Part shown: positions 6,193 to 28,101 of the stretch, in pieces
How positions within the stretch are numbered: the stretch's first letter is position 1
How the letters are laid out: each line of letters opens with the position of its first letter
The notes under the pieces: generated by a model
Databases searched by the model: none
What the model saw: the letters and a program-made list of their open reading frames with translations, nothing else
Told to the model about the DNA's origin: nothing
DNA from: a virus
Taxonomy: Duplodnaviria > Heunggongvirae > Uroviricota > Caudoviricetes
Strand: one strand, 5' to 3'
Length of the DNA: 64,000 bases
Virus record (IMG/VR): IMGVR_UViG_2718217789_000006
Made by a program: the position numbers and the translations under genes

Positions 6193-6890
6193 TGCAGGAT
6201 ATTCACGGGGAAAGCCTGATCGAGTCGGTTAAATCAGAGCAGTCACCGCGGGTGGTGCTCTGGGAAATCGACCTGACGGTGCAGGGTGGTGAGCGGTATT
6301 TTTTCTGCAATGAGCTGAATGAAAAAGGGGAGGCGGTTACCTGGCAGGGGCGGGAATATCAGGCATACCCGATTGACGGCAGCGGTTTTGAGATGAACGG
6401 GAAGGGCAGCAGTGCCCGCCCGTCGCTGACGGTGTCGAATCTGTTCGGTCTGGTCACCGGAATGGCGGAGGACCTGCAGAGCCTGGTGGGGGCCACGGTG
6501 GTCCGCCGCCGGGTGTATGCCCGTTTTCTGGATGCGGTGAATTTTGTGGCGGGCAATCCGGAAGCGGACCCGGAGCAGGAGCTGAGCGACCGCTGGGTGG
6601 TGGAGCAGATGTCAGAGCTGACGGCCATGACAGCCTCGTTTGTGCTGGCAACACCGACGGAGACGGACGGAGCGCTGTTTCCCGGTCGCATTATGCTGGC
6701 GAATACCTGTATGTGGGATTACCGGGGAGATGAATGCGGGTATAACGGTCCTGCGGTGGCGGATGAGTTCGACAACCCCACCACGGATATCCGTAAGGAC
6801 AGATGCAGCAAGTGCATGCGCGGGTGTGAGATGCGCGGCATGGTGGCTAATTTTGGCGGTTTCCTTTCCATCAATAAACTTTCGCAGTAA
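6192..6890 (+). CDS. L: Minor tail protein L
   Basis: 232 aa, ...VVLWEIDLT...GERYFFCNE...FPGRIMLANTCMWDYRGDECGY...FGGFLSINKLSQ, lambda gpL-like. Confidence 0.9.
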   Translation: MQDIHGESLIESVKSEQSPRVVLWEIDLTVQGGERYFFCNELNEKGEAVTWQGREYQAYPIDGSGFEMNGKGSSARPSLTVSNLFGLVTGMAEDLQSLVGATVVRRRVYARFLDAVNFVAGNPEADPEQELSDRWVVEQMSELTAMTASFVLATPTETDGALFPGRIMLANTCMWDYRGDECGYNGPAVADEFDNPTTDIRKDRCSKCMRGCEMRGMVANFGGFLSINKLSQ

Positions 6891-18499: not shown

Positions 18500-20896
18500 T
18501 TAAGAATCAGCCTGACTCGGGATCAGTTTTTGCCAGATAACTGAAACGTATTTTGCCTGGTAACGGGCGTCATCAAGTGCATTATGGCGCTCACCTTCGA
18601 ATGGAATAGCCGTTCTGGCATCGAAGTCTATGGCTTTCCCCAGCTCAACGATTGTGCGCACATCGCGATCGTTGTAGTAACGCCACGGGCAGGGGATCCC
18701 CTGCCGTTCGTATGAACGGCGCAAAATCGTGTTGTCGAAGTTGGCTCCATTTCCCCAGACCTGAACAAAGAATTCACCGGAGTTTTCGTCGATAAATTCC
18801 CGCAATTGTAACAGTGCATCATCTAACGGGATTTCATCGGTCATAATGGCAGATTGCGCTTCGCGTGATTGCTTAAGCCACCATTTAATGGTGTCCCGAT
18901 CAATGACTCCGCCAGCAGTTTCCAGATCGATAGTCTTACTAAATTCCGGTCCCATATCTCCGGTTTGCGGATCGAAAAATATTGCACCTATTGAGATGAT
19001 CGGGGCATCAGGATTTTTTCCCATGGTTTCAAGGTCGATCATTAGATGGTCACACGTCCTGCTGGTGGATGTGATAACGTGATGACCGTTCACCTTAATT
19101 GAGTGATCTGCCGTCTCGCCAGTTTCATTATCGCTATCGTGATGCTGATTGCCGCCAGTGTTCTCCTTGTGTGGATGTTCAGCGCCTTCCATTTCCTCCG
19201 GATCATCTTCCTGAACTTCAACCAGGTTCTTGTCATCGAATGTTTCCTGGTATGTTGCGTCGCCCATCACCGCGCCACAATCAGGGCAGTTGCCGCCGCC
19301 GGTCTGACCGCAGGTGGTGCAGATCTTTTCCGGTTCCTGTTGCACTACTGGTTCAGGTTGTTTCGTTTCTGGCTGATTCTGGTACACAGAATCGCGGGTC
19401 TGGATCCCCTTAATCCATTTCGGATCATTCGGGTCGCTAATCCCTTCAACAAATTCTCCGCGAGAGGCAGCCAGTAATTTGTCTGCATCGACAGGATTTT
19501 GGGGCGGAATGTTTTTCCGGGCTTCATGGAGTTCTGCCCGCAGTTTCTGATATTTCGCATCAACAGAATTTACCTGTGACTGAGCATCCAGCGGCTGCGT
19601 GTCCTGATGATGTTCAGTTGCATCCGGTTCCACTGTTTCAGCCGTTGCCTGTTCATCTGCCATTGCGCAAGATGGTTGCGGTTTTTCTTCATCATTTTCT
19701 TCTTCTGTTTCCTGCTTAGCAGCCAGTTCGCGGTTAACTTCTTCCAGGATATCTTTTTCCGGTGTATGTCGTGCAGCAGTGAGAGTTTCCTTGCTGGGGT
19801 TCTCGTGATCAGTCTCCGTTAAGTAGGCGTTGATATACCCCTGAAGGCGTCCCGGGTAGTGATAAAACTCAGGGTGAGCGCTCCGGATAAGTGCAAAAAT
19901 AGCGGCGCGGGAATAGTCCAGAATACCCGGGGTTGCGCGAAGTGCTGCGGACCATTCTTTGAACGGACTTTCTCTTTTCAGGACGATTTCTTTTGCGCGA
20001 CGATAAACGCTGCCCGGAATTTCATAAATATTAAAATCCATCGGAAGTGTGGCTGCTGCAATCTCCACATCCAGCGTATCGAAGGTGTGTACTAAATTCG
20101 GATTGCGATCGGTTTTGTTCCCGCCACCGGCATTTGCACCGGAAGCCGTACGGGTGATACGCGAAACACGATTTCCTTTCATCCACTCTTTTGTCAGCAG
20201 ACCCCGATCAGTGTAGTCAGCGTCCAGGTATGCCTCGAAAAAAGCAGTTATCAGTCCCAGGTCTGAATTACCGGGATTAGGGAAAACTTTGTCAGTGTCG
20301 CGTGCCAGTTTATGAAGGTCGCGAATCTCCAGCGGGTCGAGCAGCTTTGTGTTGTGGGAAATGGCCAGGGCAGTAACAGCCGGCAGTTCTTCCGCCCGTG
20401 CTATATGTAATGCCTGAAGTTCTTCCCGTGCAACGTGCGTTACTGGTTTTTCGCTGCCGTGTTGCGCAAGCCAGCGAATGGGCAGCTCCTGACCAGAAAC
20501 CGGCAGGAGCATATTCTCCTCAATCTCCGTCATGTCTTCGCCGTTGACGTTGGTATTGTCAGTACTGGCTGGTTTCTCCTGCACGGAGGGAGAGGGCGCG
20601 ATAAATACCATTGTAATGCCATCTTCCCCGCCTTTTTCGTATCGGTTGCAGAATTCGGTATCAAACACGCCTTCAGGTGGAAGGTCATTCACAACGGGTA
20701 AATGGACGCGAACGGGTTTTTTAAAGTCGTCTTCATCATAATCGTTGTCATCCATTGCGGTAATGCAGCGGGAGATGGCAACAGATAATTTTTTTGCTGT
20801 AGTCCAGTAAAAACCACCTTTAATTCCCAGACGTTTTCTGACTTTGTCATTTTTTGCTTCGCAATATAGCGCAAATTCTTCTTTATCAGTGCTCAT
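18500..20896 (-). CDS. Putative phage exonuclease with C-terminal DnaQ-like (DEDDh) 3'-5' exonuclease domain
   Basis: 798 aa; C-terminal ...[26 protein letters not shown]...[15 protein letters not shown]...[12 protein letters not shown]... fits Exo I/II/III motifs; central CxxC...CxxC zinc-ribbon ([21 protein letters not shown]) and acidic linker. Confidence 0.7.
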
Positions 20897-21011
20897 TGAT
20901 AAACCTCATTACAGATTTAAGGGTGAACAAATCCCTGCCATTGCTGGCATTTTTAATCCGTTGGTATGGTGTTAATATGGCTGGAGGGTTATCCAGCCGG
21001 TGTTTCGTTAT

Positions 21012-21179
21012 TCAGGTACAGCGATACTTTTTTTTTACCGGGAGGCATTCACCAGAAATTTTTTGCTCGTCTCTTGCCTGGAGGCAGGATTCTTTACTGG
21101 CATAAATTCCGGTAATCACATTCTGTGATTCACCCGTTATAAGAAAAACCGTCATCATCAGTGCAAATGCTGAAGTCAT
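21012..21179 (-). CDS. YdfD-like small protein with hydrophobic N-terminus
   Basis: 55 aa (below ORF-track cutoff), MTSAFALMMTVFLITGESQNVITG...; start overlaps the dicB stop (ATGA); position matches ydfD after dicB in Qin. Confidence 0.45.
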   Translation of the reverse strand: MTSAFALMMTVFLITGESQNVITGIYASKESCLQARDEQKISGECLPVKKKYRCT

Positions 21180-21364
21180 TGACGTTCTCCGAAAATACCA
21201 AGTTCAAGAAGAGCAATTCGGGAAAGTATGGAATTATCATTGAGCAGATAAGGCTCATATTTCCTCATATTAATGGCATCTTCAGTAAACTCCCGGTTAC
21301 TGAGCAGAACACCAATATCAAAACAACCTTCAGACGTATTAACGTTTGGTAATAACGTTTCCAT
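21176..21364 (-). CDS. dicB: DicB-like cell division inhibitor
   Basis: 62 aa, METLLPNVNTSEGCFDIGVLLSNREFTEDAIN...; same length and N-terminus as K-12 DicB as recalled. Confidence 0.7.
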   Translation of the reverse strand: METLLPNVNTSEGCFDIGVLLSNREFTEDAINMRKYEPYLLNDNSILSRIALLELGIFGERQ

Positions 21365-21542
21365 TATCGCGTCCTCAACAATGAATTTTGTGATGCAGTG
21401 CCTGGTGCCTCCAGGTGACGTTAACCAGTTAACAATTAACGCCGGATTAGTTGATGCTCGTTACGCCCGTAAAATACCGCCTTACTGCTTTAACTGTTCC
21501 GCGTGCGCATAGCCGCATTCACCGCATCACAAAATTCACTTT

Positions 21543-21582
21543 AAAAAGGGCGGATATCCGTTTCCGCCGAATCACCAGAAAA
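21543..21582 (-). ncRNA. dicF: DicF-like small RNA (variant)
   Basis: Minus-strand UUUCUGGUGAUUCGGCGGAAACGGAUAUCCGCCCUUUUU: DicF-type 5' seed (UUUCUGGUGA) plus terminator hairpin and U-run, followed by UAAAGUGAAUUUUGUGAUG as downstream of K-12 dicF (recalled); lies between ydfC-like gene and dicB. Confidence 0.5.
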
Positions 21583-21883
21583 GTGATAACAGAGGGCGTT
21601 GCAGCGGGGTTGTCACTTAAGCGTATGGTCAACCTGACAACCCGGTGTCCTCAGCGGGGAAGGAATAACCCCGCCATACTTACCGCCGCGCCATTTCGCG
21701 GATTGCCACAACCGGAAGCGCACGGTCGAATTAAATTTAACGACTACCTACAGAGAGACGAACTTCGCCGTGCGCTTTCGCGTTATGCCCTGACTTTTCA
21801 GGGATATATCCTTTTCAGTAAACTGTCAGTGCCGGATTCTTATCCGTGTCCGGCGCACGCACTCTACCTCACCTGTGAATAAA

Positions 21884-22258
21884 TTAATGATTAATTGATA
21901 TTTTGTTGTTTGATTCAACTTTCCCATCGGATGTGTGATGCTTTAAATCACAGGAATTAATACTGCTTGCTGTAAAATGATTTTCAAGGGGAGCTATTCG
22001 AATCCCTTTCTTTTTCATTAACAAGCCAAATCCTTTATTAATGATGTTCATTAATTCCAGGAAGTATTTTTCATGTAAATTCTGGTTATCAGAGAGCTGC
22101 TTCTCTTCGCACAGACCGATAAAGGCACGACGCACGTTACCGGATATAGTATCGATGGTTTCTTTTTCTACGGTACTCAGGTCAAGAGTCGCCAGTTGGG
22201 AACGAACTATATTCGCTGCCATTTCCTGGAATTGCATTGGTAAATCTTTAAATTCCAT
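21884..22258 (-). CDS. Hypothetical 124-aa protein (AT-rich insertion in the dicB operon)
   Basis: GAGG RBS 7 nt upstream; start 22 nt after the ydfC-like stop; MEFKDLPMQFQEMAANIVRSQLATLDLS...; low GC versus flanks; no family recognised. Confidence 0.5.
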   Translation of the reverse strand: MEFKDLPMQFQEMAANIVRSQLATLDLSTVEKETIDTISGNVRRAFIGLCEEKQLSDNQNLHEKYFLELMNIINKGFGLLMKKKGIRIAPLENHFTASSINSCDLKHHTSDGKVESNNKISINH

Positions 22259-22280
22259 TATTAGCCTCGTTGGTTAGCTA

Positions 22281-22499
22281 TTAACGCGGGTATGTAATCA
22301 TTCTGGCAATGCTTAATGCCGCTGCTTTTTCCAGATTAGTGATATCCTGCTCCAGAGCGGACAGATTTTCAGCCTGCTTAGCCCTGGCTTCATTGGCCCA
22401 TTTCAGATCCTGCGCTGCATTAATTTTCTGGTGCATCCACTCATAAAGTTCATCATCGGTATAGTCTGGCGCGATGATGACGGGTTCTCGTTTCTGCAT
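22281..22499 (-). CDS. YdfC-like protein
   Basis: 72 aa (same length as K-12 YdfC), MQKREPVIIAPDYTDDELYEWMHQKINAAQ...; position in the dicB-type operon. Confidence 0.5.
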   Translation of the reverse strand: MQKREPVIIAPDYTDDELYEWMHQKINAAQDLKWANEARAKQAENLSALEQDITNLEKAAALSIARMITYPR

Positions 22500-22528
22500 A
22501 CTGATTCCTCGCGGTGCTGTTTCGCTTA

Positions 22529-22657
22529 TCAGCCGTTAGATTTTGCCGAACTGGAAAGCGCCTGTTTAAATTCGTTGAAGCTGAGAGCTTCTTCGCCTTC
22601 GGCAAGACCTTCGAAGTATTCTTCGTAAGCCTTTTCCATGATTGTGTCGAAATCCAT
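22529..22657 (-). CDS. YdfB-like small protein
   Basis: 42 aa (below ORF-track cutoff), MDFDTIMEKAYEEYFEGLAEGEEALSFNEFKQALSSSAKSNG; AGGTGAG RBS; same length and position as K-12 YdfB. Confidence 0.45.
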   Translation of the reverse strand: MDFDTIMEKAYEEYFEGLAEGEEALSFNEFKQALSSSAKSNG

Positions 22658-22658
22658 A

Positions 22659-22814
22659 TCACTCACCTGAGTTTCTTTCCAGCCAGCGACGGGCACCATT
22701 TTCGGTTTTAAACGTTTTGCTTTTGGTATACGTCATCGCGGTGAACGTACCGTCCTGGTTGGGGAACACGCCACATACCAGAGATTCGCTGTTGCCAAGA
22801 TCGATAGTATCCAT
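22659..22814 (-). CDS. YdfA-like small protein
   Basis: 51 aa from internal ATG with GAGG RBS (MDTIDLGNSESLVCGVFPNQDGTFTAMTYTKSKTFKTENGARRWLERNSGE); stop overlaps ydfB-like start. Confidence 0.5.
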   Translation of the reverse strand: MDTIDLGNSESLVCGVFPNQDGTFTAMTYTKSKTFKTENGARRWLERNSGE

Positions 22815-23000
22815 GCTGACCTCATTTCCCCTTAACGCCGGGGTAGCGGAACAAAAACCTGCTGCATAGTTATTAAAGTTGAACCCTGCCGTCATGTTCT
22901 TACGCCTCGGGCTGGCTACTTAACCCCTGACCACTGCCTGGTAACTCGAAGTATTGCCCTGCATTCTGTGGGGCGGGGTGGGTTGGTATGAAAAGAAGGA

Positions 23001-23037
23001 TACCCATAGGTATTTAAAAAGTAAATACCCATGGGTA
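23001..23037. promoter_or_regulatory. Pair of 12-bp palindromic operator-like sites between repressor gene and dicB-type operon
   Basis: TACCCATAGGTA (23001..23012) and TACCCATGGGTA (23026..23037), perfect palindromes 25 bp centre-to-centre, upstream of the ydfA-like gene. Confidence 0.45.
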
Positions 23038-23079
23038 AATTTTTGCGGTGTCTTAACTGGTGACTAGTTGTTTGGTGAG

Positions 23080-23499
23080 CTATGATGCGTTTTGTGCTTT
23101 CTTTTTACGGATTTCTTCGTAGATCATATTGTAATACTGTTTTTTCTCTTCAAGAGTTTTTAATAATTTATCCGCTTCACTTTCTGGCAGTTCGTCTAAG
23201 AGATCTAAAAAAATACGTTGTCGTGGCGTTAGAACCCTTGTTTCATAACTGGAGGCTGTGTTCGTTGATGATGAAACGATACCATCCATCCATCCCCGGG
23301 GTAACCCAAAGGACTCTTCGATAATCTCCACCATATCATCAGCGATCCGTTTTTTTCCCTTTTTCCCCTCTGGGTACAACATTCTTGATACATAAGAAGG
23401 CTCGCGCCCGATCTTTCTGGCCACGTTAACCGCTTTACCATCGCATTTCTCATCACGAATTTTGATGAGTTGCTGTCGTCTAAATTCATATTTGTCCAT
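23080..23499 (-). CDS. Prophage repressor (DicA/RacR/CI-type HTH protein)
   Basis: 139 aa; HTH-like ...AVNVARKIGREPSYVSRML...; C-terminal ...LDELPESEADKLL... resembles DicA ...ALPESEQD...; divergent from a Cro-like gene. Confidence 0.7.
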   Translation of the reverse strand: MDKYEFRRQQLIKIRDEKCDGKAVNVARKIGREPSYVSRMLYPEGKKGKKRIADDMVEIIEESFGLPRGWMDGIVSSSTNTASSYETRVLTPRQRIFLDLLDELPESEADKLLKTLEEKKQYYNMIYEEIRKKKAQNAS

Positions 23500-23580
23500 A
23501 GGTAAATAATAGATGCGATTACCGCAAGGTAAACAACCTGTGGGTATTGGCTTTTGTTTACCTGTGGGTATTCTTTGCTG
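23500..23580. promoter_or_regulatory. Divergent promoter/operator region between repressor and Cro-like gene
   Basis: CCATAGGTA half-site and two direct copies of CCTGTGGGTATT (reverse complement TACCCACAGG, a one-base variant of the palindrome core at 23001..23037). Confidence 0.4.
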
Positions 23581-23599
23581 TGTTTACTAAGGAGTAGCT

Positions 23600-23881
23600 A
23601 TGGAAGAATTAAGAATATTTCTCAATTCTCTTTCGTCAGATGAACAGCGTATGTTTGCATGCGAGTGTGGTACCAGCATCGGTTATCTAAGAAAGGCATT
23701 GAGTAAAGGTCAAGTGTTAGGGGCATCGTTATGTGTCCTTATTGAGCGAGCCAGTAATGGTGAAGTTACACGTCAGCAACTAAGGCCTTTTGATTGGATG
23801 AATATTTGGCCCGAGCTGGAAGATACCAAAACGTTAACACAACCACTTTCTAGGAGCTTGATTCATGAAAATCAAGCATGA
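23600..23881 (+). CDS. Cro/YdaS-like HTH regulator
   Basis: 93 aa, ...MFACECGTSIGYLRKALSKGQ...; divergent from the repressor, AGGAG RBS. Confidence 0.6.
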   Translation: MEELRIFLNSLSSDEQRMFACECGTSIGYLRKALSKGQVLGASLCVLIERASNGEVTRQQLRPFDWMNIWPELEDTKTLTQPLSRSLIHENQA

Positions 23882-24290
23882 ACACATCCGCATGGCGATG
23901 AATGCCTGGGCGCGTCCTGATGGCGAAAAAGTTCCAGCAGCTGGAATAACCCAGGCTTATTTTGAGTTGGGTATGACGTTCCCAGAACTGTATGACGACA
24001 GCCATCCGGAAGCCCTGGCTCGCAATACCCAGAAAATTTTCCGCTGGGTAGAGAAAGACACCCCTGATGCTGTTGAAAAAATGCAGGCTCTGTTACCGGC
24101 GATCGAAAAGGCGATGCCGCCTTTGCTGGTGGCCCGTATGCGCAGCCACAGTTCTGAATATTACCGTGAGATCGTCGAACGGAGGGATCGGCTGGTGAAG
24201 GATGTCGATGATTTTGTTGCGTCAGCGGTTGTTTTGTATGACCAGATGAATCGCGGCGGCCCGGCAGGGAATGCTGTGGTGATGCACTAA
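23865..24290 (+). CDS. YdaT-like regulatory protein
   Basis: 141 aa following the Cro-like gene with short overlap, as ydaS-ydaT in Rac-type immunity regions; assignment by position and general resemblance. Confidence 0.45.
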   Translation: MKIKHEHIRMAMNAWARPDGEKVPAAGITQAYFELGMTFPELYDDSHPEALARNTQKIFRWVEKDTPDAVEKMQALLPAIEKAMPPLLVARMRSHSSEYYREIVERRDRLVKDVDDFVASAVVLYDQMNRGGPAGNAVVMH

Positions 24291-24312
24291 AAGCACGGTG
24301 TTCGGGGGTTTT

Positions 24313-25275
24313 ATGAGCAGCAAGCTTCATGGTCTTGTCTGGGAAGGGTGCGCCTTCACCGGCATGATCTTATCCAGGGTGGCGGTTATGGCCCGTCTTG
24401 CAGACTACAGCAATGACGAGGGCGTGTCATGGCCTGCCATTGAAACTATCCGGCGTCAGATCGGTGCAAGAAGTGAATCCACAGTGAAATCGGCTATTGC
24501 AGAACTGGCGAAAGAGGGCTGGCTGACGAAGGAAGAGCGTAAGGTCGGTGGGCGTAATGTAAGCAATATCTATCGGCTTAATGTGGAAAAACTCGAAGCA
24601 GCTGCGGCGGCGGCGCGTGAGTCATATAAACCGAAAAGAAAAATTAGCCCGGCAAAAAATGACCCGTTAACAGTTGACCCGTCAAATATTGACCCCTCAA
24701 CGGTTGACCCGTCAAATTTTGATGGATCAACTGTTGATAACAAACTGCCGATTAGGGGGGCGATGATTGACCCCGATCCGTCAGTATTAAAACCTGATCC
24801 GTCAGATAAAAGATCTTCTTGTCCGGACGCTTCGCAACCGGACCCGCAGACGGCTGAACAGGATTTTTTAACCCGACACCCTGACGCGGTTGTGTTCAGT
24901 GCGAAAAAACGCCAGTGGGGAAGTCAGGAAGATTTGGTGTGCGCACAGTGGATCTGGGGACGAATCGTGAGTCTTTACGAGCAGGCGGCCAGCTATGATG
25001 GCGAGATCACTAGACCGAAAGAACCCAACTGGACAGCATGGGCCAATGACGTTCGCACAATGCGGATGCTGGATGGCAGAACTCACAGACAAATTTGTGA
25101 AATGTTTGGGCGTCTCCAGCGGGATTCGTTCTGGGTAAAAAACATCATGAGTCCGGCAAAACTCCGGGAAAAATGGGATGAACTGGTTATCCGCCTGGGG
25201 CGTTCGCCTGCGCAGCGTTGCGTGAATCACATTTCTGAACCGGACACTGAAATACCGCCGGGATTCAGGGGGTGA
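24313..25275 (+). CDS. Replication initiator (lambda O-like / replisome organiser)
   Basis: N-terminal winged-helix-like region; internal repeated DP(L/S)TVDPSN peptide coded by DNA direct repeats (iteron-like); upstream of the DnaC-like loader; ATG 24313 with GGGGG RBS preferred over GTG 24298. Confidence 0.7.
   Translation: MSSKLHGLVWEGCAFTGMILSRVAVMARLADYSNDEGVSWPAIETIRRQIGARSESTVKSAIAELAKEGWLTKEERKVGGRNVSNIYRLNVEKLEAAAAAARESYKPKRKISPAKNDPLTVDPSNIDPSTVDPSNFDGSTVDNKLPIRGAMIDPDPSVLKPDPSDKRSSCPDASQPDPQTAEQDFLTRHPDAVVFSAKKRQWGSQEDLVCAQWIWGRIVSLYEQAASYDGEITRPKEPNWTAWANDVRTMRMLDGRTHRQICEMFGRLQRDSFWVKNIMSPAKLREKWDELVIRLGRSPAQRCVNHISEPDTEIPPGFRG
24661..24740. repeat. Iteron-like direct repeats inside the replication initiator gene (candidate ori)
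   Basis: GACCCGTTAACAGTTGACCCGTCAAATATTGACCCCTCAACGGTTGACCCGTCAAATTTTGAT...: four or more copies of a TTGACCCGTCAA-type unit. Confidence 0.45.
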
Positions 25276-25281
25276 CGTGTC

Positions 25282-26028
25282 ATGAAAAACATTGCGGCAG
25301 TTGGGGTTCTTGAACGTATTCGCAGACTTGCACCACAGGGGCCGGTTCCACCGTACCGGACGGTGGAGGAGTGGCGGGAATGGCAACTTGCTGAAGGACG
25401 AAAACGCAGCGAGGAGATTAACCGCCAGAATCGCCAGTTGCGGGTGGAAAAAATCCTGAATCGTTCGGGCATCCAGCCTCTGCACAGCAAATGCTCGTTT
25501 GCAAATTATCAGGTGCAGAACGACGGGCAAAAATACGCGCTGAGCCAGGCCAAATCCATAGCTGACGAACTGATGACCGGGTGCACGAATTTTGTGTTCA
25601 GCGGTAAAACCGGCACCGGGAAAAATCACCTTGCAGCGGCGATGGGCAACCGGCTGATGGTGAAGGGGCGCAGCGTGATTATCGTCACCGTGTCTGACGT
25701 CATGAGCGTGTTGCATGACAGCTACGACAACGGCAAATCCGGGGAAAAATTTTTACAGGAGCTTTGCGGGGTTGATTTGCTGGTCCTGGATGAAATAGGC
25801 GTTCAGCGGGAGACGAAAAACGAGCAGGTGGTATTGCACCAGATAATTGATCGCCGGACAGCATCACTGTGCAGTGTCGGGATGTTAACAAACCTGAATC
25901 ATGCCGCAATGAGTACGCTTCTTGGTGAGAGGATTATGGACCGCATGACCATGAACGGTGGTCGATGGGTGACGTTTAACTGGGATAGCTGGCGTCCAAA
26001 TGTCAGCAATATGAGGGTTGTGAAGTAA
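25282..26028 (+). CDS. DnaC-like helicase loader (IstB-like AAA+ ATPase)
   Basis: 248 aa; Walker A GKTGTGKNHLAAA, Walker B DLLVLDEIG. Confidence 0.85.
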   Translation: MKNIAAVGVLERIRRLAPQGPVPPYRTVEEWREWQLAEGRKRSEEINRQNRQLRVEKILNRSGIQPLHSKCSFANYQVQNDGQKYALSQAKSIADELMTGCTNFVFSGKTGTGKNHLAAAMGNRLMVKGRSVIIVTVSDVMSVLHDSYDNGKSGEKFLQELCGVDLLVLDEIGVQRETKNEQVVLHQIIDRRTASLCSVGMLTNLNHAAMSTLLGERIMDRMTMNGGRWVTFNWDSWRPNVSNMRVVK

Positions 26029-26049
26029 TTTTGTCCGGAGGAAATTTTA

Positions 26050-26820
26050 ATGGAAACCGTATCTGACGCACTGAAAGCACTGAAAAAAGCCTCTTCACAT
26101 GTGGTGGCAGCTCGCCTTGGAATCAGTCGTGAAGAGGCTGTCAACGAGCTGTGGGAACTCAAAAGAAAAGGCGTCGTTGATAAAACTGGTCACACCTGGT
26201 TTCTGGCTGGCGAAGGTGAATCCCGGGTAACCGAAGAGCGGCCAGTAAAATCTGAAGCACAGGATATGCTGACCGGGGAGGTCGAACAAAAAGTTACCGC
26301 AGACATGATGATTGAGTTTATCGGTCAGGATGGGGCTAAAACGTGTGAGGAACTGGCGGGTAAGTTCGGTGTCAGTACTCGCAAGGTTGCTTCCACGCTG
26401 GCGGTGGTAACCGCAACGGGGCGGCTGGCACGCGTTAATCAGAACGGTAAATTTCGTTACTGCATGCCGGGCGATAATTTACCAGCAGAGCCGAAAGCCG
26501 CGCTGGTAACGGAAAGTGATGGTAAGGCCTTTCCTCAGCCAGCAGGTGCTGCGTTACCAGTCCGGGAAGCCGCAACACAGGAAGAAATTAAAACAGAAAC
26601 TGTGGCGGACATTGTGCAGCCGTTGCCATCGTTTACCGAAACGCAAGCAGATGAGCTGATTTTTCCGTCCCTTCGCAGGGCAAACCTGGCGCTGCGCAGG
26701 GCGAAAAGTGATGTTCAGAAGTGGGAGCGAGTCTGCGCCGCGCTGCGGGAGCTGAACAAGCACCGGGATATTGTTCGACAGATTACTGATTCTTCCCGCC
26801 GTGTTGTATCGGAAAAGTGA
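26050..26820 (+). CDS. Hypothetical protein with two winged-helix-like segments
   Basis: 256 aa; GGAGG RBS; no family recognised. Confidence 0.5.
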   Translation: METVSDALKALKKASSHVVAARLGISREEAVNELWELKRKGVVDKTGHTWFLAGEGESRVTEERPVKSEAQDMLTGEVEQKVTADMMIEFIGQDGAKTCEELAGKFGVSTRKVASTLAVVTATGRLARVNQNGKFRYCMPGDNLPAEPKAALVTESDGKAFPQPAGAALPVREAATQEEIKTETVADIVQPLPSFTETQADELIFPSLRRANLALRRAKSDVQKWERVCAALRELNKHRDIVRQITDSSRRVVSEK

Positions 26821-26835
26821 TTGCCGGAGGCGCTT

Positions 26836-27261
26836 ATGGCAAAAGCATTTACACAAGAAGAGCGGGAAAAAATTAAAGGGCAGGTTGTTGAACTTGTACG
26901 TCTGAGCGGTCGCGAGACGTTGCGGCAACTGGAAGCCAAGACAGGTGCGACAAGATATCTGATGAGTGTTCTCGCCAGAGAGCTGGTTGCCAGTGGCGAT
27001 GTATACAACTCTGGTTACGGGTTATTCCCGTCTGAACAGGCGCGTAAGGACTGGCAAAATGCTCGCAAAAAACTCTCAAGGGCAAAGGTGAAGAAACCTG
27101 CAGTGGTTGATCCGGACCTTATCTGGTCGTTACCAGACGGCGAAATACGCCGCTACGACAGGCGCCTGAATATAATCTGTCGCGAGTGCCGGAAGAGCGA
27201 AGCTATGCAGCGTGTACTGGCATTTTATCAAGGAAATGTTAGGTATTTTAGACGTTACTAG
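26836..27261 (+). CDS. Hypothetical protein
   Basis: 142 aa; GGAGG RBS 5 nt upstream of ATG 26836. Confidence 0.5.
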   Translation: MAKAFTQEEREKIKGQVVELVRLSGRETLRQLEAKTGATRYLMSVLARELVASGDVYNSGYGLFPSEQARKDWQNARKKLSRAKVKKPAVVDPDLIWSLPDGEIRRYDRRLNIICRECRKSEAMQRVLAFYQGNVRYFRRY

Positions 27262-27414
27262 ATTAAAGAGCATTAGTTCAGATGTGAATTGACATTTTCA
27301 TGGCGCAGGGTAGAGCCAGCGCGGTTGTCCGCTTTGCGTCAAAACCAGATATTACCAGATTTAGACATATATTCCCGATAGCCCTGCTCTGATGCTACAC
27401 TCTGTGCTATTTTC

Positions 27415-28101
27415 ATGACCCCAATAAAAATATTTATGACTATTGCTGATTTCAAACGGCCTAAATTGGAGCTCCCAAACGGGGCAAACAAACTACTACT
27501 GCACTCTTGCTGTGCTCCATGTTCCGGTGAAGTGATGGAGGCGCTTCAGGCCTCGGGAATCGACTACACCATCTTTTTCTACAACCCGAACATTCATCCT
27601 CAGAAAGAGTATTTAATTCGTAAGGATGAAAATATTCGCTTTGCTGAACAACACGGCGTGCCGTTTATCGATGCTGATTACGACACCGACAACTGGTTTG
27701 AACGTGCCAAAGGAATGGAATGGGAGCCTGAGAGGGGGATCCGTTGTACCATGTGTTTTGACATGCGTTTTGAGCGGACAGCGTTGTACGCTGCTGAAAA
27801 TGGTTTCAGTGTGATCAGCAGTTCACTGGGCATTTCACGCTGGAAAAATATGCAGCAGGTTAACGAGTGTGGGCGGCGAGCTGTTGCGCATTATCCGGGT
27901 ATGGTGTACTGGGATTATAACTGGCGCAAGCAGGGCGGCTCGTCCCGTATGATTGAAATCAGCAAGCGCGAAAAATTCTATCAGCAGGAATATTGTGGCT
28001 GTGTGTATTCTCTGCGCGATACCAATCTACACCGCAAATCTCAGGGACGCCCTCTTATCAAAATTGGCCAACTCCACTACGGAAAAGAAGAGAAGGAGTG
28101 A
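27415..28101 (+). CDS. QueH-like protein (DUF208, epoxyqueuosine reductase family)
   Basis: 228 aa; [11 protein letters not shown]...FFYNPNIHP...QEYCGCVYS motifs characteristic of QueH/DUF208 as recalled. Confidence 0.55.

Follow-up and report, generated by a model that had tools for sequence, protein, structure and literature searches.

A shortened, unannotated dicF-type allele in Qin-like prophages of Escherichia coli O157:H7, predicted to have lost the pairing regions of DicF

The window analyzed here, a 64,000-nucleotide stretch of viral DNA from IMG/VR, is E. coli O157:H7 DNA and carries two lambdoid prophages in tandem at ydfJ, the site that Qin occupies in K-12. Its segment from 12000 to 30000 (18 kb) is 100% identical to O157:H7 strain 9000 and to a series of UK "Z" strains. 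The second prophage extends from an integrase gene (16861-18156, minus strand) through nleC, a DinI-family gene, and a truncated ydfJ. Its minus strand carries, in this order, a repressor gene in the DicA position (23080..23499), which lies upstream of the left operon, a ydfA-like DUF1391 gene (22659-22814), ydfB (22529-22657), ydfC (22281-22499), a hypothetical open reading frame (ORF) of 124 amino acids (21884-22258), the short allele described in this work (21543-21582), dicB (21176..21364), a ydfD-like gene, an exonuclease gene, xis, and int. A divergent gene in the cro/dicC position lies at 23600-23881 on the plus strand. Operon genes were assigned from the ORF list and the RefSeq annotation of the identical DNA, and the two regulatory genes from RefSeq annotation compared with the K-12 layout. 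The arrangement matches dicA-ydfABC-dicF-dicB-ydfD of K-12 Qin: in this Qin-like lambdoid prophage from O157:H7, the short allele occupies the ydfC-dicB interval that holds dicF in K-12. Translation shows that dicB, which encodes a cell division inhibitor of 62 amino acids, is intact downstream of the short allele.

Several other features of the prophage merit description. K-12 Qin has no equivalent of the 124-amino-acid ORF that separates ydfC from the DicF slot; there, the dicF precursor comes directly after ydfC. The ydfD-like gene, which encodes a DUF1482 protein just downstream of dicB (20989-21179, minus strand), is frameshifted in the identical RefSeq record, which suggests some decay in the operon. 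A match to the sok antitoxin RNA (28169-28349, plus strand; 61 bits versus a threshold of 59) extends over the beginning of a gene for a DNA cytosine methyltransferase, which is followed by an NgoMIV-family restriction endonuclease gene (approximately 28286-30296, plus strand); a type II restriction-modification module appears to have been inserted where other such prophages carry hok/sok.

Read from the letters of the window, minus-strand positions 21543-21582 are UUUUCUGGUGAUUCGGCGGAAACGGAUAUCCGCCCUUUUU; from 21582 to 21543, the strand is TTTTCTGGTGATTCGGCGGAAACGGATATCCGCCCTTTTT, a leading T followed by UUUCUGGUGA as the first ten bases. The predicted short DicF RNA, UUUCUGGUGAUUCGGCGGAAACGGAUAUCCGCCCUUUUU (21543..21581, minus strand; from the sequence and its alignment to K-12 dicF), is 34 nt long through the last base of the stem, or 39 nt when the U-tail is included. 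Its 5′ end is placed at the RNase E end of K-12 DicF, and we infer both termini from K-12 biogenesis. The terminator hairpin, GGCGGA-AACGGAUA-UCCGCC (21549..21568, minus strand), has 6 bp and an 8-nt loop, is listed by a consensus terminator scan, and is followed by a U5 tail at 21543-21547. A pattern scan and folding thus both predict a Rho-independent terminator at the 3′ end, as in DicF. Alone, the 39-mer folds at −10.7 kcal/mol into this hairpin preceded by an unpaired 5′ end of 13 nt, UUUCUGGUGAUUC (21569..21581, minus strand; alignment and minimum free energy fold). The first 10 nt of this segment are those of DicF, and nt 11 to 13 differ (K-12, CGUUU). An earlier note on this DNA, made from its letters, had reported the sequence and coordinates of the locus and a terminator hairpin with a U-run; all are accurate, and the stem is a G+C-rich one of 6 bp followed by U5.

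The resemblance to K-12 extends well beyond the RNA itself. Over the 601 nt around the short allele, alignment to K-12 ydfC-dicF-dicB gave a mean column identity of 89%, with approximately 150 nt upstream and approximately 60 nt downstream of the sRNA nearly identical. The earlier note had described the downstream flank (AAAGTGAATTTTGTGATG...) as matching K-12, and the alignment bears this out. Synteny, comparison with the K-12 annotation, and alignment also place the locus at the dicF position, in line with the DicF-like variant that the note proposed. The upstream precursor segment (21582..21720, minus strand), also near-identical to K-12, is the equivalent of the extra ∼137 nt in the 190-nt RNase III-generated DicF species of K-12. 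Short allele and DicF (RF00039) have in common the slot, the precursor and leader, the first 10 nt (UUUCUGGUGA), the hairpin base GGCGG/CCGCC, the U5 tail, and presumably their biogenesis.

Within the sRNA body, the two differ by a 2-nt gap (GA--UUCGG versus GACGUUUGG), a 17-nt gap, and substitutions in the hairpin, which leaves the short allele 19 nt below the length of DicF (34 versus 53 nt to the stem end and 39 versus 58 nt with the U-tail). The inner stem-loop (DicF nt ∼21 to 47) is absent and nt 11 to 15 are changed. We describe the allele as one that is missing the upper two-thirds of the hairpin terminating DicF, along with 2 nt from the 5′ arm. The shortening that the earlier note described is real, although the note had located it between the 5′ seed and the terminator, and the missing part is the upper terminator hairpin and not a spacer. 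Of the 5′ seed, only half is retained: nt 6 to 10 of the validated xylR seed (nt 6 to 15) are kept, and the sequence diverges from nt 11 onward.

The Rfam DicF model does not recognize this locus. At the RF00039 gathering threshold of 48 bits, where the K-12 DicF control scored 76.7 bits, no DicF match was found in the whole window, nor was there one at an E value of ≤10 in the 601 nt around the allele. In a 71-nt slice, the DicF model aligned end to end (16.6 bits, E value of 0.074). The earlier note had held that the lack of an Rfam hit together with the lack of a transcript would speak against DicF; the former is what was found at the gathering threshold, and homology nevertheless holds because of synteny and flank identity. 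The feature is real, a dicF homologue by position and flanks that fails the family model. A chance resemblance, in which an unrelated terminator happens to follow UUUCUGGUGA, might draw on the missing Rfam match and on a 9-mer of the locus, TTCTGGTGA, that recurs in the window. Set against it are the end-to-end alignment to the DicF model in the local search, the synteny, and the near-identical flanks over hundreds of bases, and we consider it practically excluded. The 9-mer occurs five times in the window (positions 8593, 21049, 21572, 42418, and 54893) versus 0.64 expected from shuffles; one copy lies inside the ydfD-like gene just downstream of dicB, and others may reflect duplicated tail genes of the two tandem prophages.

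A simple one-step deletion of K-12 DicF does not explain the allele, since the bases left in the loop, AAACGGAUAU, do not form an unbroken stretch of K-12 sequence. Judged by its letters, the hairpin has a closer resemblance to one of the GGCGGCAUCGG...GAUGUCCGCC type that has lost its interior; comparison of GGCGGCAUCGG|AUGUCCGCC with GGCGGAAACGG|AUAUCCGCC gives three mismatches.

Between the sRNA slot and dicB lies a structured leader (21365..21542, minus strand), delineated by alignment, Rfam, and a complement scan. It has weak similarity to STnc100 (31.2 bits, below the gathering threshold of 47) and contains a long-range complement, 21528-21542 with 21378-21392, that adjoins the dicB Shine-Dalgarno sequence. 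The leader is kept behind every slot allele, including the kil-linked ones in Stx phages, and may be a translational or antitermination element. Similar leaders in other phage contigs (L168 at 1510-1708, L018, L027, and L165) score 29 to 34 bits against STnc100, again below the gathering threshold of 47. The same prophage also carries a full-length Rfam match to STnc100 (148 bits; 34708-34908, plus strand), which lies downstream of the Q antiterminator gene of this non-Stx prophage and ahead of a DUF6645 gene, not of stx.

DicF of K-12 is processed from the dicBp transcript, RNase III giving a 190-nt species and RNase E a 53-nt species, and no transcript reaching into dicB was detected (bioRxiv 10.1101/2023.04.14.536235). 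A sequence scan directly upstream of the short allele found no sigma-70-like promoter site, which is consistent with processing from the operon transcript. If the K-12 pathway, the only one in which these cuts have been shown, applies here, RNase III would cut the operon transcript approximately 137 nt upstream and RNase E would cut it immediately 5′ of UUUCUGG, yielding RNAs of ∼34 to 39 nt and ∼171 to 176 nt that would end at the 6-bp hairpin and U5. The RNase E site expected from K-12 falls in the loop of a small predicted precursor hairpin of modest energy, AUCACU/GGUGAU (21571..21587, minus strand), as it does in the K-12 allele, where the predicted counterpart has 8 bp in another register. 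The 6-bp GC hairpin and U5 would still serve as an intrinsic terminator and insulator ahead of the toxic dicB, and what is left of the sRNA would be a 13-nt single-stranded 5′ end on a minimal scaffold of seed, terminator, and U-tail. The short hairpin is the weakest among 14 alleles of this slot (6 bp and −10.7 kcal/mol versus −14.6 to −23.9 kcal/mol), so termination may be leaky.

Table S2 of Tree et al. 2014 lists no orphan Hfq-CRAC peak at 2.706 to 2.708 Mb of the Sakai genome, and the tables of that study contain no DicF entry either; because the operon is normally repressed, the absence of a peak is weak negative evidence. A known RNA offers a partial parallel: StxS, from the PR′-tR′ transcript and assigned to STnc100, is likewise released by an intrinsic terminator that gates downstream phage genes (PMC7547250). 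StxS, however, has its own promoter and is ∼200 nt long, whereas the short DicF RNA would be cut from a polycistronic mRNA and is 5 to 6 times shorter.

The regions of DicF that contact its targets have been mapped. The 3′ region pairs with the ftsZ ribosome-binding site (RBS) and the 5′ end pairs with xylR through a validated seed at DicF nt 6 to 15, GGUGACGUUU (PMC5069750); the 3′ end pairs with manX (PMC5861419), and the DicF23 position also controls pykA, according to the literature. We compared the alleles by a windowed duplex scan with an opening-energy (accessibility) correction and 60 shuffled seeds as the control, covering five targets: ftsZ, xylR, pykA, manX, and, from the pchA/pchC pair, pchC. 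On canonical DicF, the scan recovered the four published sites: ftsZ (mRNA −28 to −7 with DicF nt 32 to 53, −8.0 kcal/mol), xylR (mRNA +10 to +19 with DicF nt 6 to 15, −10.6 kcal/mol), manX (mRNA +34 to +52 with DicF nt 35 to 54, −10.4 kcal/mol), and pykA (the RBS with DicF nt 26 to 43, −12.1 kcal/mol).

On the short allele, all four sites were gone, and the best values, −3.5 to −6.5 kcal/mol, fell within the range of the 60 shuffled seeds. Pairing with xylR reached about −4.5/−4.9 kcal/mol (−10.6 kcal/mol for canonical DicF), within the shuffled-seed background, and the best value for ftsZ was −4.8 kcal/mol versus a shuffled mean of −4.6 kcal/mol, the region complementary to ftsZ, pykA, and manX having been deleted. 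The short allele keeps only DicF nt 1 to 10 and the terminator base; loss or change has affected exactly the nucleotides used for pairing with ftsZ, pykA, and manX (DicF nt ∼26 to 54) as well as nt 11 to 15, which form the 3′ half of the seed for xylR. The known functions of DicF, including division inhibition via ftsZ, should therefore be gone, and the short allele probably no longer blocks cell division, a prediction that, like the loss of targets as a whole, is drawn from pairing energies. The earlier note had suggested that the target-pairing region may differ, and the duplex scan agrees, with predicted pairing to ftsZ, xylR, and pykA lost.

Among the known DicF targets, the scan found no convincing partner for the remaining 13-nt 5′ end. 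Prophage Sp14 of strain Sakai also carries pchC (ECs_2737; L170, 30474-30788), a paralogue of the DicF target pchA. The segment GGUGAUUC pairs with pchC codons 3 to 6 at −5.3 kcal/mol in the first scan and −6.9 kcal/mol in the shuffle-control run; the sequence of these codons, UGAUCACC, complements GGUGAUU(C) in the short allele and does so a little better than it complements canonical DicF. The value of −6.9 kcal/mol was reached by 2 of the 60 shuffled seeds and loses significance after correction for five targets, and we treat the pairing as a lead only. Inside the window, six sites, including the locus itself, are complementary to the seed at ≤2 mismatches, a number matched in 1 of 100 shuffles; none of the six is a compelling target.

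The short form is common in O157:H7. With a specific 52-nt query, it was found at 524 places in 441 of 5,426 complete E. coli genomes, many of them O157:H7; canonical DicF occurs at 6,401 places in 3,969 of the complete genomes. Sakai carries it, unannotated, in prophage Sp14 (inserted at tRNA-Ser/mtfA), between ECs_2767 and dicB (ECs_2768) at approximately 2,707,677 to 2,707,716. Among near relatives of the window, Z892, Z1769, and Z1832 have two short copies each, and Z1766 has three canonical copies. A search of one genome per species returned the exact sequence only in the type strain of E. albertii, where dicB is identical as well. A search of the full-text literature with the sequence as DNA, RNA, and reverse complement returned no paper. 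Canonical E. coli-type DicF, together with the leader and the first four dicB codons, is also present in the 254-kb T4-like Aeromonas phage AP1 (L169, 1440-1690; MT713136.1, ∼249.9 to 250.2 kb), which could reflect assembly contamination or a recent transfer.

Three subtypes of the short form were distinguished in IMG/VR: S1 is the form of the window, S2 has a U in the loop, an A after the stem, and diverged flanks, and S3 has a C-to-U change in the loop, as in Sakai. Neither S2 nor S3 gave a match to the DicF covariance model. The main subtypes differ at just two positions, one in the loop and one directly following the stem, and two single loci have one stem change each. The 42-nt core is identical at 40 or 41 of 42 positions between subtypes and the upstream flanks are 79 to 92% identical; the core sits on at least three different flank backgrounds, and for every short subtype, some locus with canonical DicF has a flank closer to its own than another short subtype does. 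Near-identical cores combined with flanks closer to canonical loci point to recombination of the core onto different backgrounds, although most short-allele loci were retrieved by patterns holding part of the core, an ascertainment bias. A gapped pattern defined by the flanks only returned discrete interior lengths, 41 and 58 to 62 nt, and no intermediate or further-decayed lengths between conserved flanks. Across 19 haplotypes, a 29-nt run over the processing site and seed shows no variation, versus approximately 9 variable sites in the 25 nt upstream, and conservation of the core is inseparable from that of neighboring blocks common to canonical loci.

The short allele is one of many occupants of the dicF slot. 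We searched phage contigs for a noncanonical 3′ arm ahead of the conserved downstream leader and found at least 10 further seed/hairpin types besides the short allele (IMG/VR loci L171 to L278, e.g., L171, L173, L184, L176, L193, L172, and L212; also L168, 1468-1516). All have a common base, (U/C)UUGGCGG...CCGCC(C)UUUUU, and the same leader, followed by a DicB-type, Kil-type, or other small ORF (MLNVAIENQ type). We refer to this grouping, defined in this analysis, as DicF-slot terminator-hairpin alleles of lambdoid prophages; the short allele belongs to it by its GGCGG...CCGCC(C)UUUUU hairpin, its AAAGUGAAUUUUGUGAUGCGGUGAAUG leader, and its position upstream of dicB/kil. Class T, a DicF allele described below, and the kil-linked hairpins found in Stx phages and other lambdoid phages (Shigella phage 75/02 Stx is one) have the upstream block, the leader, and a downstream toxic ORF (dicB, kil, or other) in common with the short allele. 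In contrast to it, they have hairpins of 11 to 17 bp (−14.6 to −23.9 kcal/mol) and mostly other 5′ segments; a bare 6-bp stem is found only in the short allele among the 14. RNAalifold on the 14 alleles predicted only the invariant 5-bp base, with the inner stems unaligned, and gave no evidence of covariation.

DicF is a textbook prophage sRNA, and its four copies in enterohemorrhagic E. coli (EHEC) are said to link oxygen sensing to virulence and filamentation. The noncoding RNA table of EHEC strain EDL933 lists four copies, DicF_1 to DicF_4, as Rfam-type features of 52 to 56 nt (PMC5331693). The short allele is absent from these four annotated copies and invisible to the Rfam model, from which we infer that it is an additional, uncounted dicF-type locus. 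The class T allele, UUUCUGGUGACGUUUGGCGG followed by CAUCUGUUUGCCCAUGAACUGAUGUCCGCCC (L018, 1570-1619; EDL933, NZ_CP008957.1, 1847266-1847321), combines DicF nt 1 to 22 with a different hairpin and is present in EDL933 and other strains, 290 complete E. coli genomes in all. Its score is 43.5 bits, just under the Rfam gathering threshold of 48, and its loop lacks the ftsZ-complementary CUCC; it may be one of the four EDL933 copies.

Taken as a whole, we read the locus as a dicF allele in a repressor-controlled left operon that has kept its cis terminator and lost the known DicF functions, a reading to which we assign a probability of roughly 0.6. The function most likely kept is a cis one, that of an operon-internal terminator and processing point limiting read-through into dicB; action in trans on the known DicF targets has most likely been lost, as the modeled pairing suggests, and a new trans function of the short RNA, though possible, is less likely. 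Were that function real, the allele would be a stable, Hfq-dependent trans regulator of 34 to 39 nt whose 13-nt 5′ end, UUUCUGGUGAUUC, addresses a regulon other than that of DicF. Its layout of single-stranded seed, GC hairpin, and U-tail would suit such a role, since it resembles a minimal Hfq-binding sRNA scaffold in predicted architecture, and minimal scaffolds of this kind are reportedly functional in SgrS truncation studies. The invariant 29-nt run over the processing site and seed, the spread to different prophage backbones and to E. albertii, and the marginal pairing of GGUGAUUC with pchC also fit. Yet no target stands out, with pchC failing the correction for five targets; canonical alleles show the same invariance of the seed, which may be due to the RNase E processing hairpin and not to pairing; the U-tail has a length of just 5 nt; and the published Sakai data show no Hfq peak. 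We regard a neofunctionalized regulator of this kind as unlikely. A broader proposal makes the dicF position a cassette with swappable seeds: lambdoid prophages of Escherichia place at least 10 seed/hairpin variants on one conserved scaffold of processing, termination, and leader elements just ahead of dicB or kil, and each variant would be a distinct host-directed sRNA; we advance it tentatively, as somewhat improbable.

The opposite reading, in which an internal deletion destroyed DicF and the remnant hitchhikes in prophages while selection maintains no terminator or trans role, would account for the 19-nt shortening, the failure of the Rfam model, and the loss of every validated pairing region. 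The frameshifted neighboring ydfD-like gene, suggestive of decay, and a hairpin that we interpret as the family hairpin (GGCGGCAUCGG...AUGUCCGCC) minus its interior and plus a few substitutions, are in keeping with it. An inert relic, however, is hard to reconcile with the clean 6-bp GC stem, 8-nt loop, and intact U-tract that remain after the deletion, with the intact dicB downstream, and with the recurrence of the same core on at least three diverged flank backgrounds and in 441 genomes. Nor does it sit well with subtypes that differ only at the loop and post-stem bases, apart from the two loci with a single stem change, or with the lack of intermediate or further-decayed lengths between conserved flanks. 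We therefore consider it decidedly unlikely and retain the reading of a dicF allele with its terminator kept and its known functions lost.

The locus is a truncated, probably "disarmed" dicF allele that is common in O157:H7 and unannotated. Many O157:H7 genomes, Sakai with its Sp14 copy among them, hold a further dicF-type locus that is invisible to Rfam-based annotation and is without the nucleotides used against the four validated K-12 targets, and statements of DicF copy number, as well as "all-dicF" deletion strains, may be incomplete. Were the cassette proposal true, EHEC would have a fifth, functionally different dicF-type locus, which quadruple dicF deletions may have spared if aimed at the four Rfam-detectable copies. 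The short allele would then be one of two things: a new sRNA of minimal size that governs a regulon of its own, or a disarmed allele under selection that abolishes silencing of ftsZ, pykA, and manX in polylysogens already carrying several dicF copies. The current understanding of DicF is not overturned by the short allele. As a natural separation-of-function variant, with its terminator and processing context kept and its pairing regions gone, it would be useful for probing the cis role of the slot in dicB control, and together with the many other slot variants it suggests that phage sRNAs evolve in a modular way around a scaffold that stays fixed.
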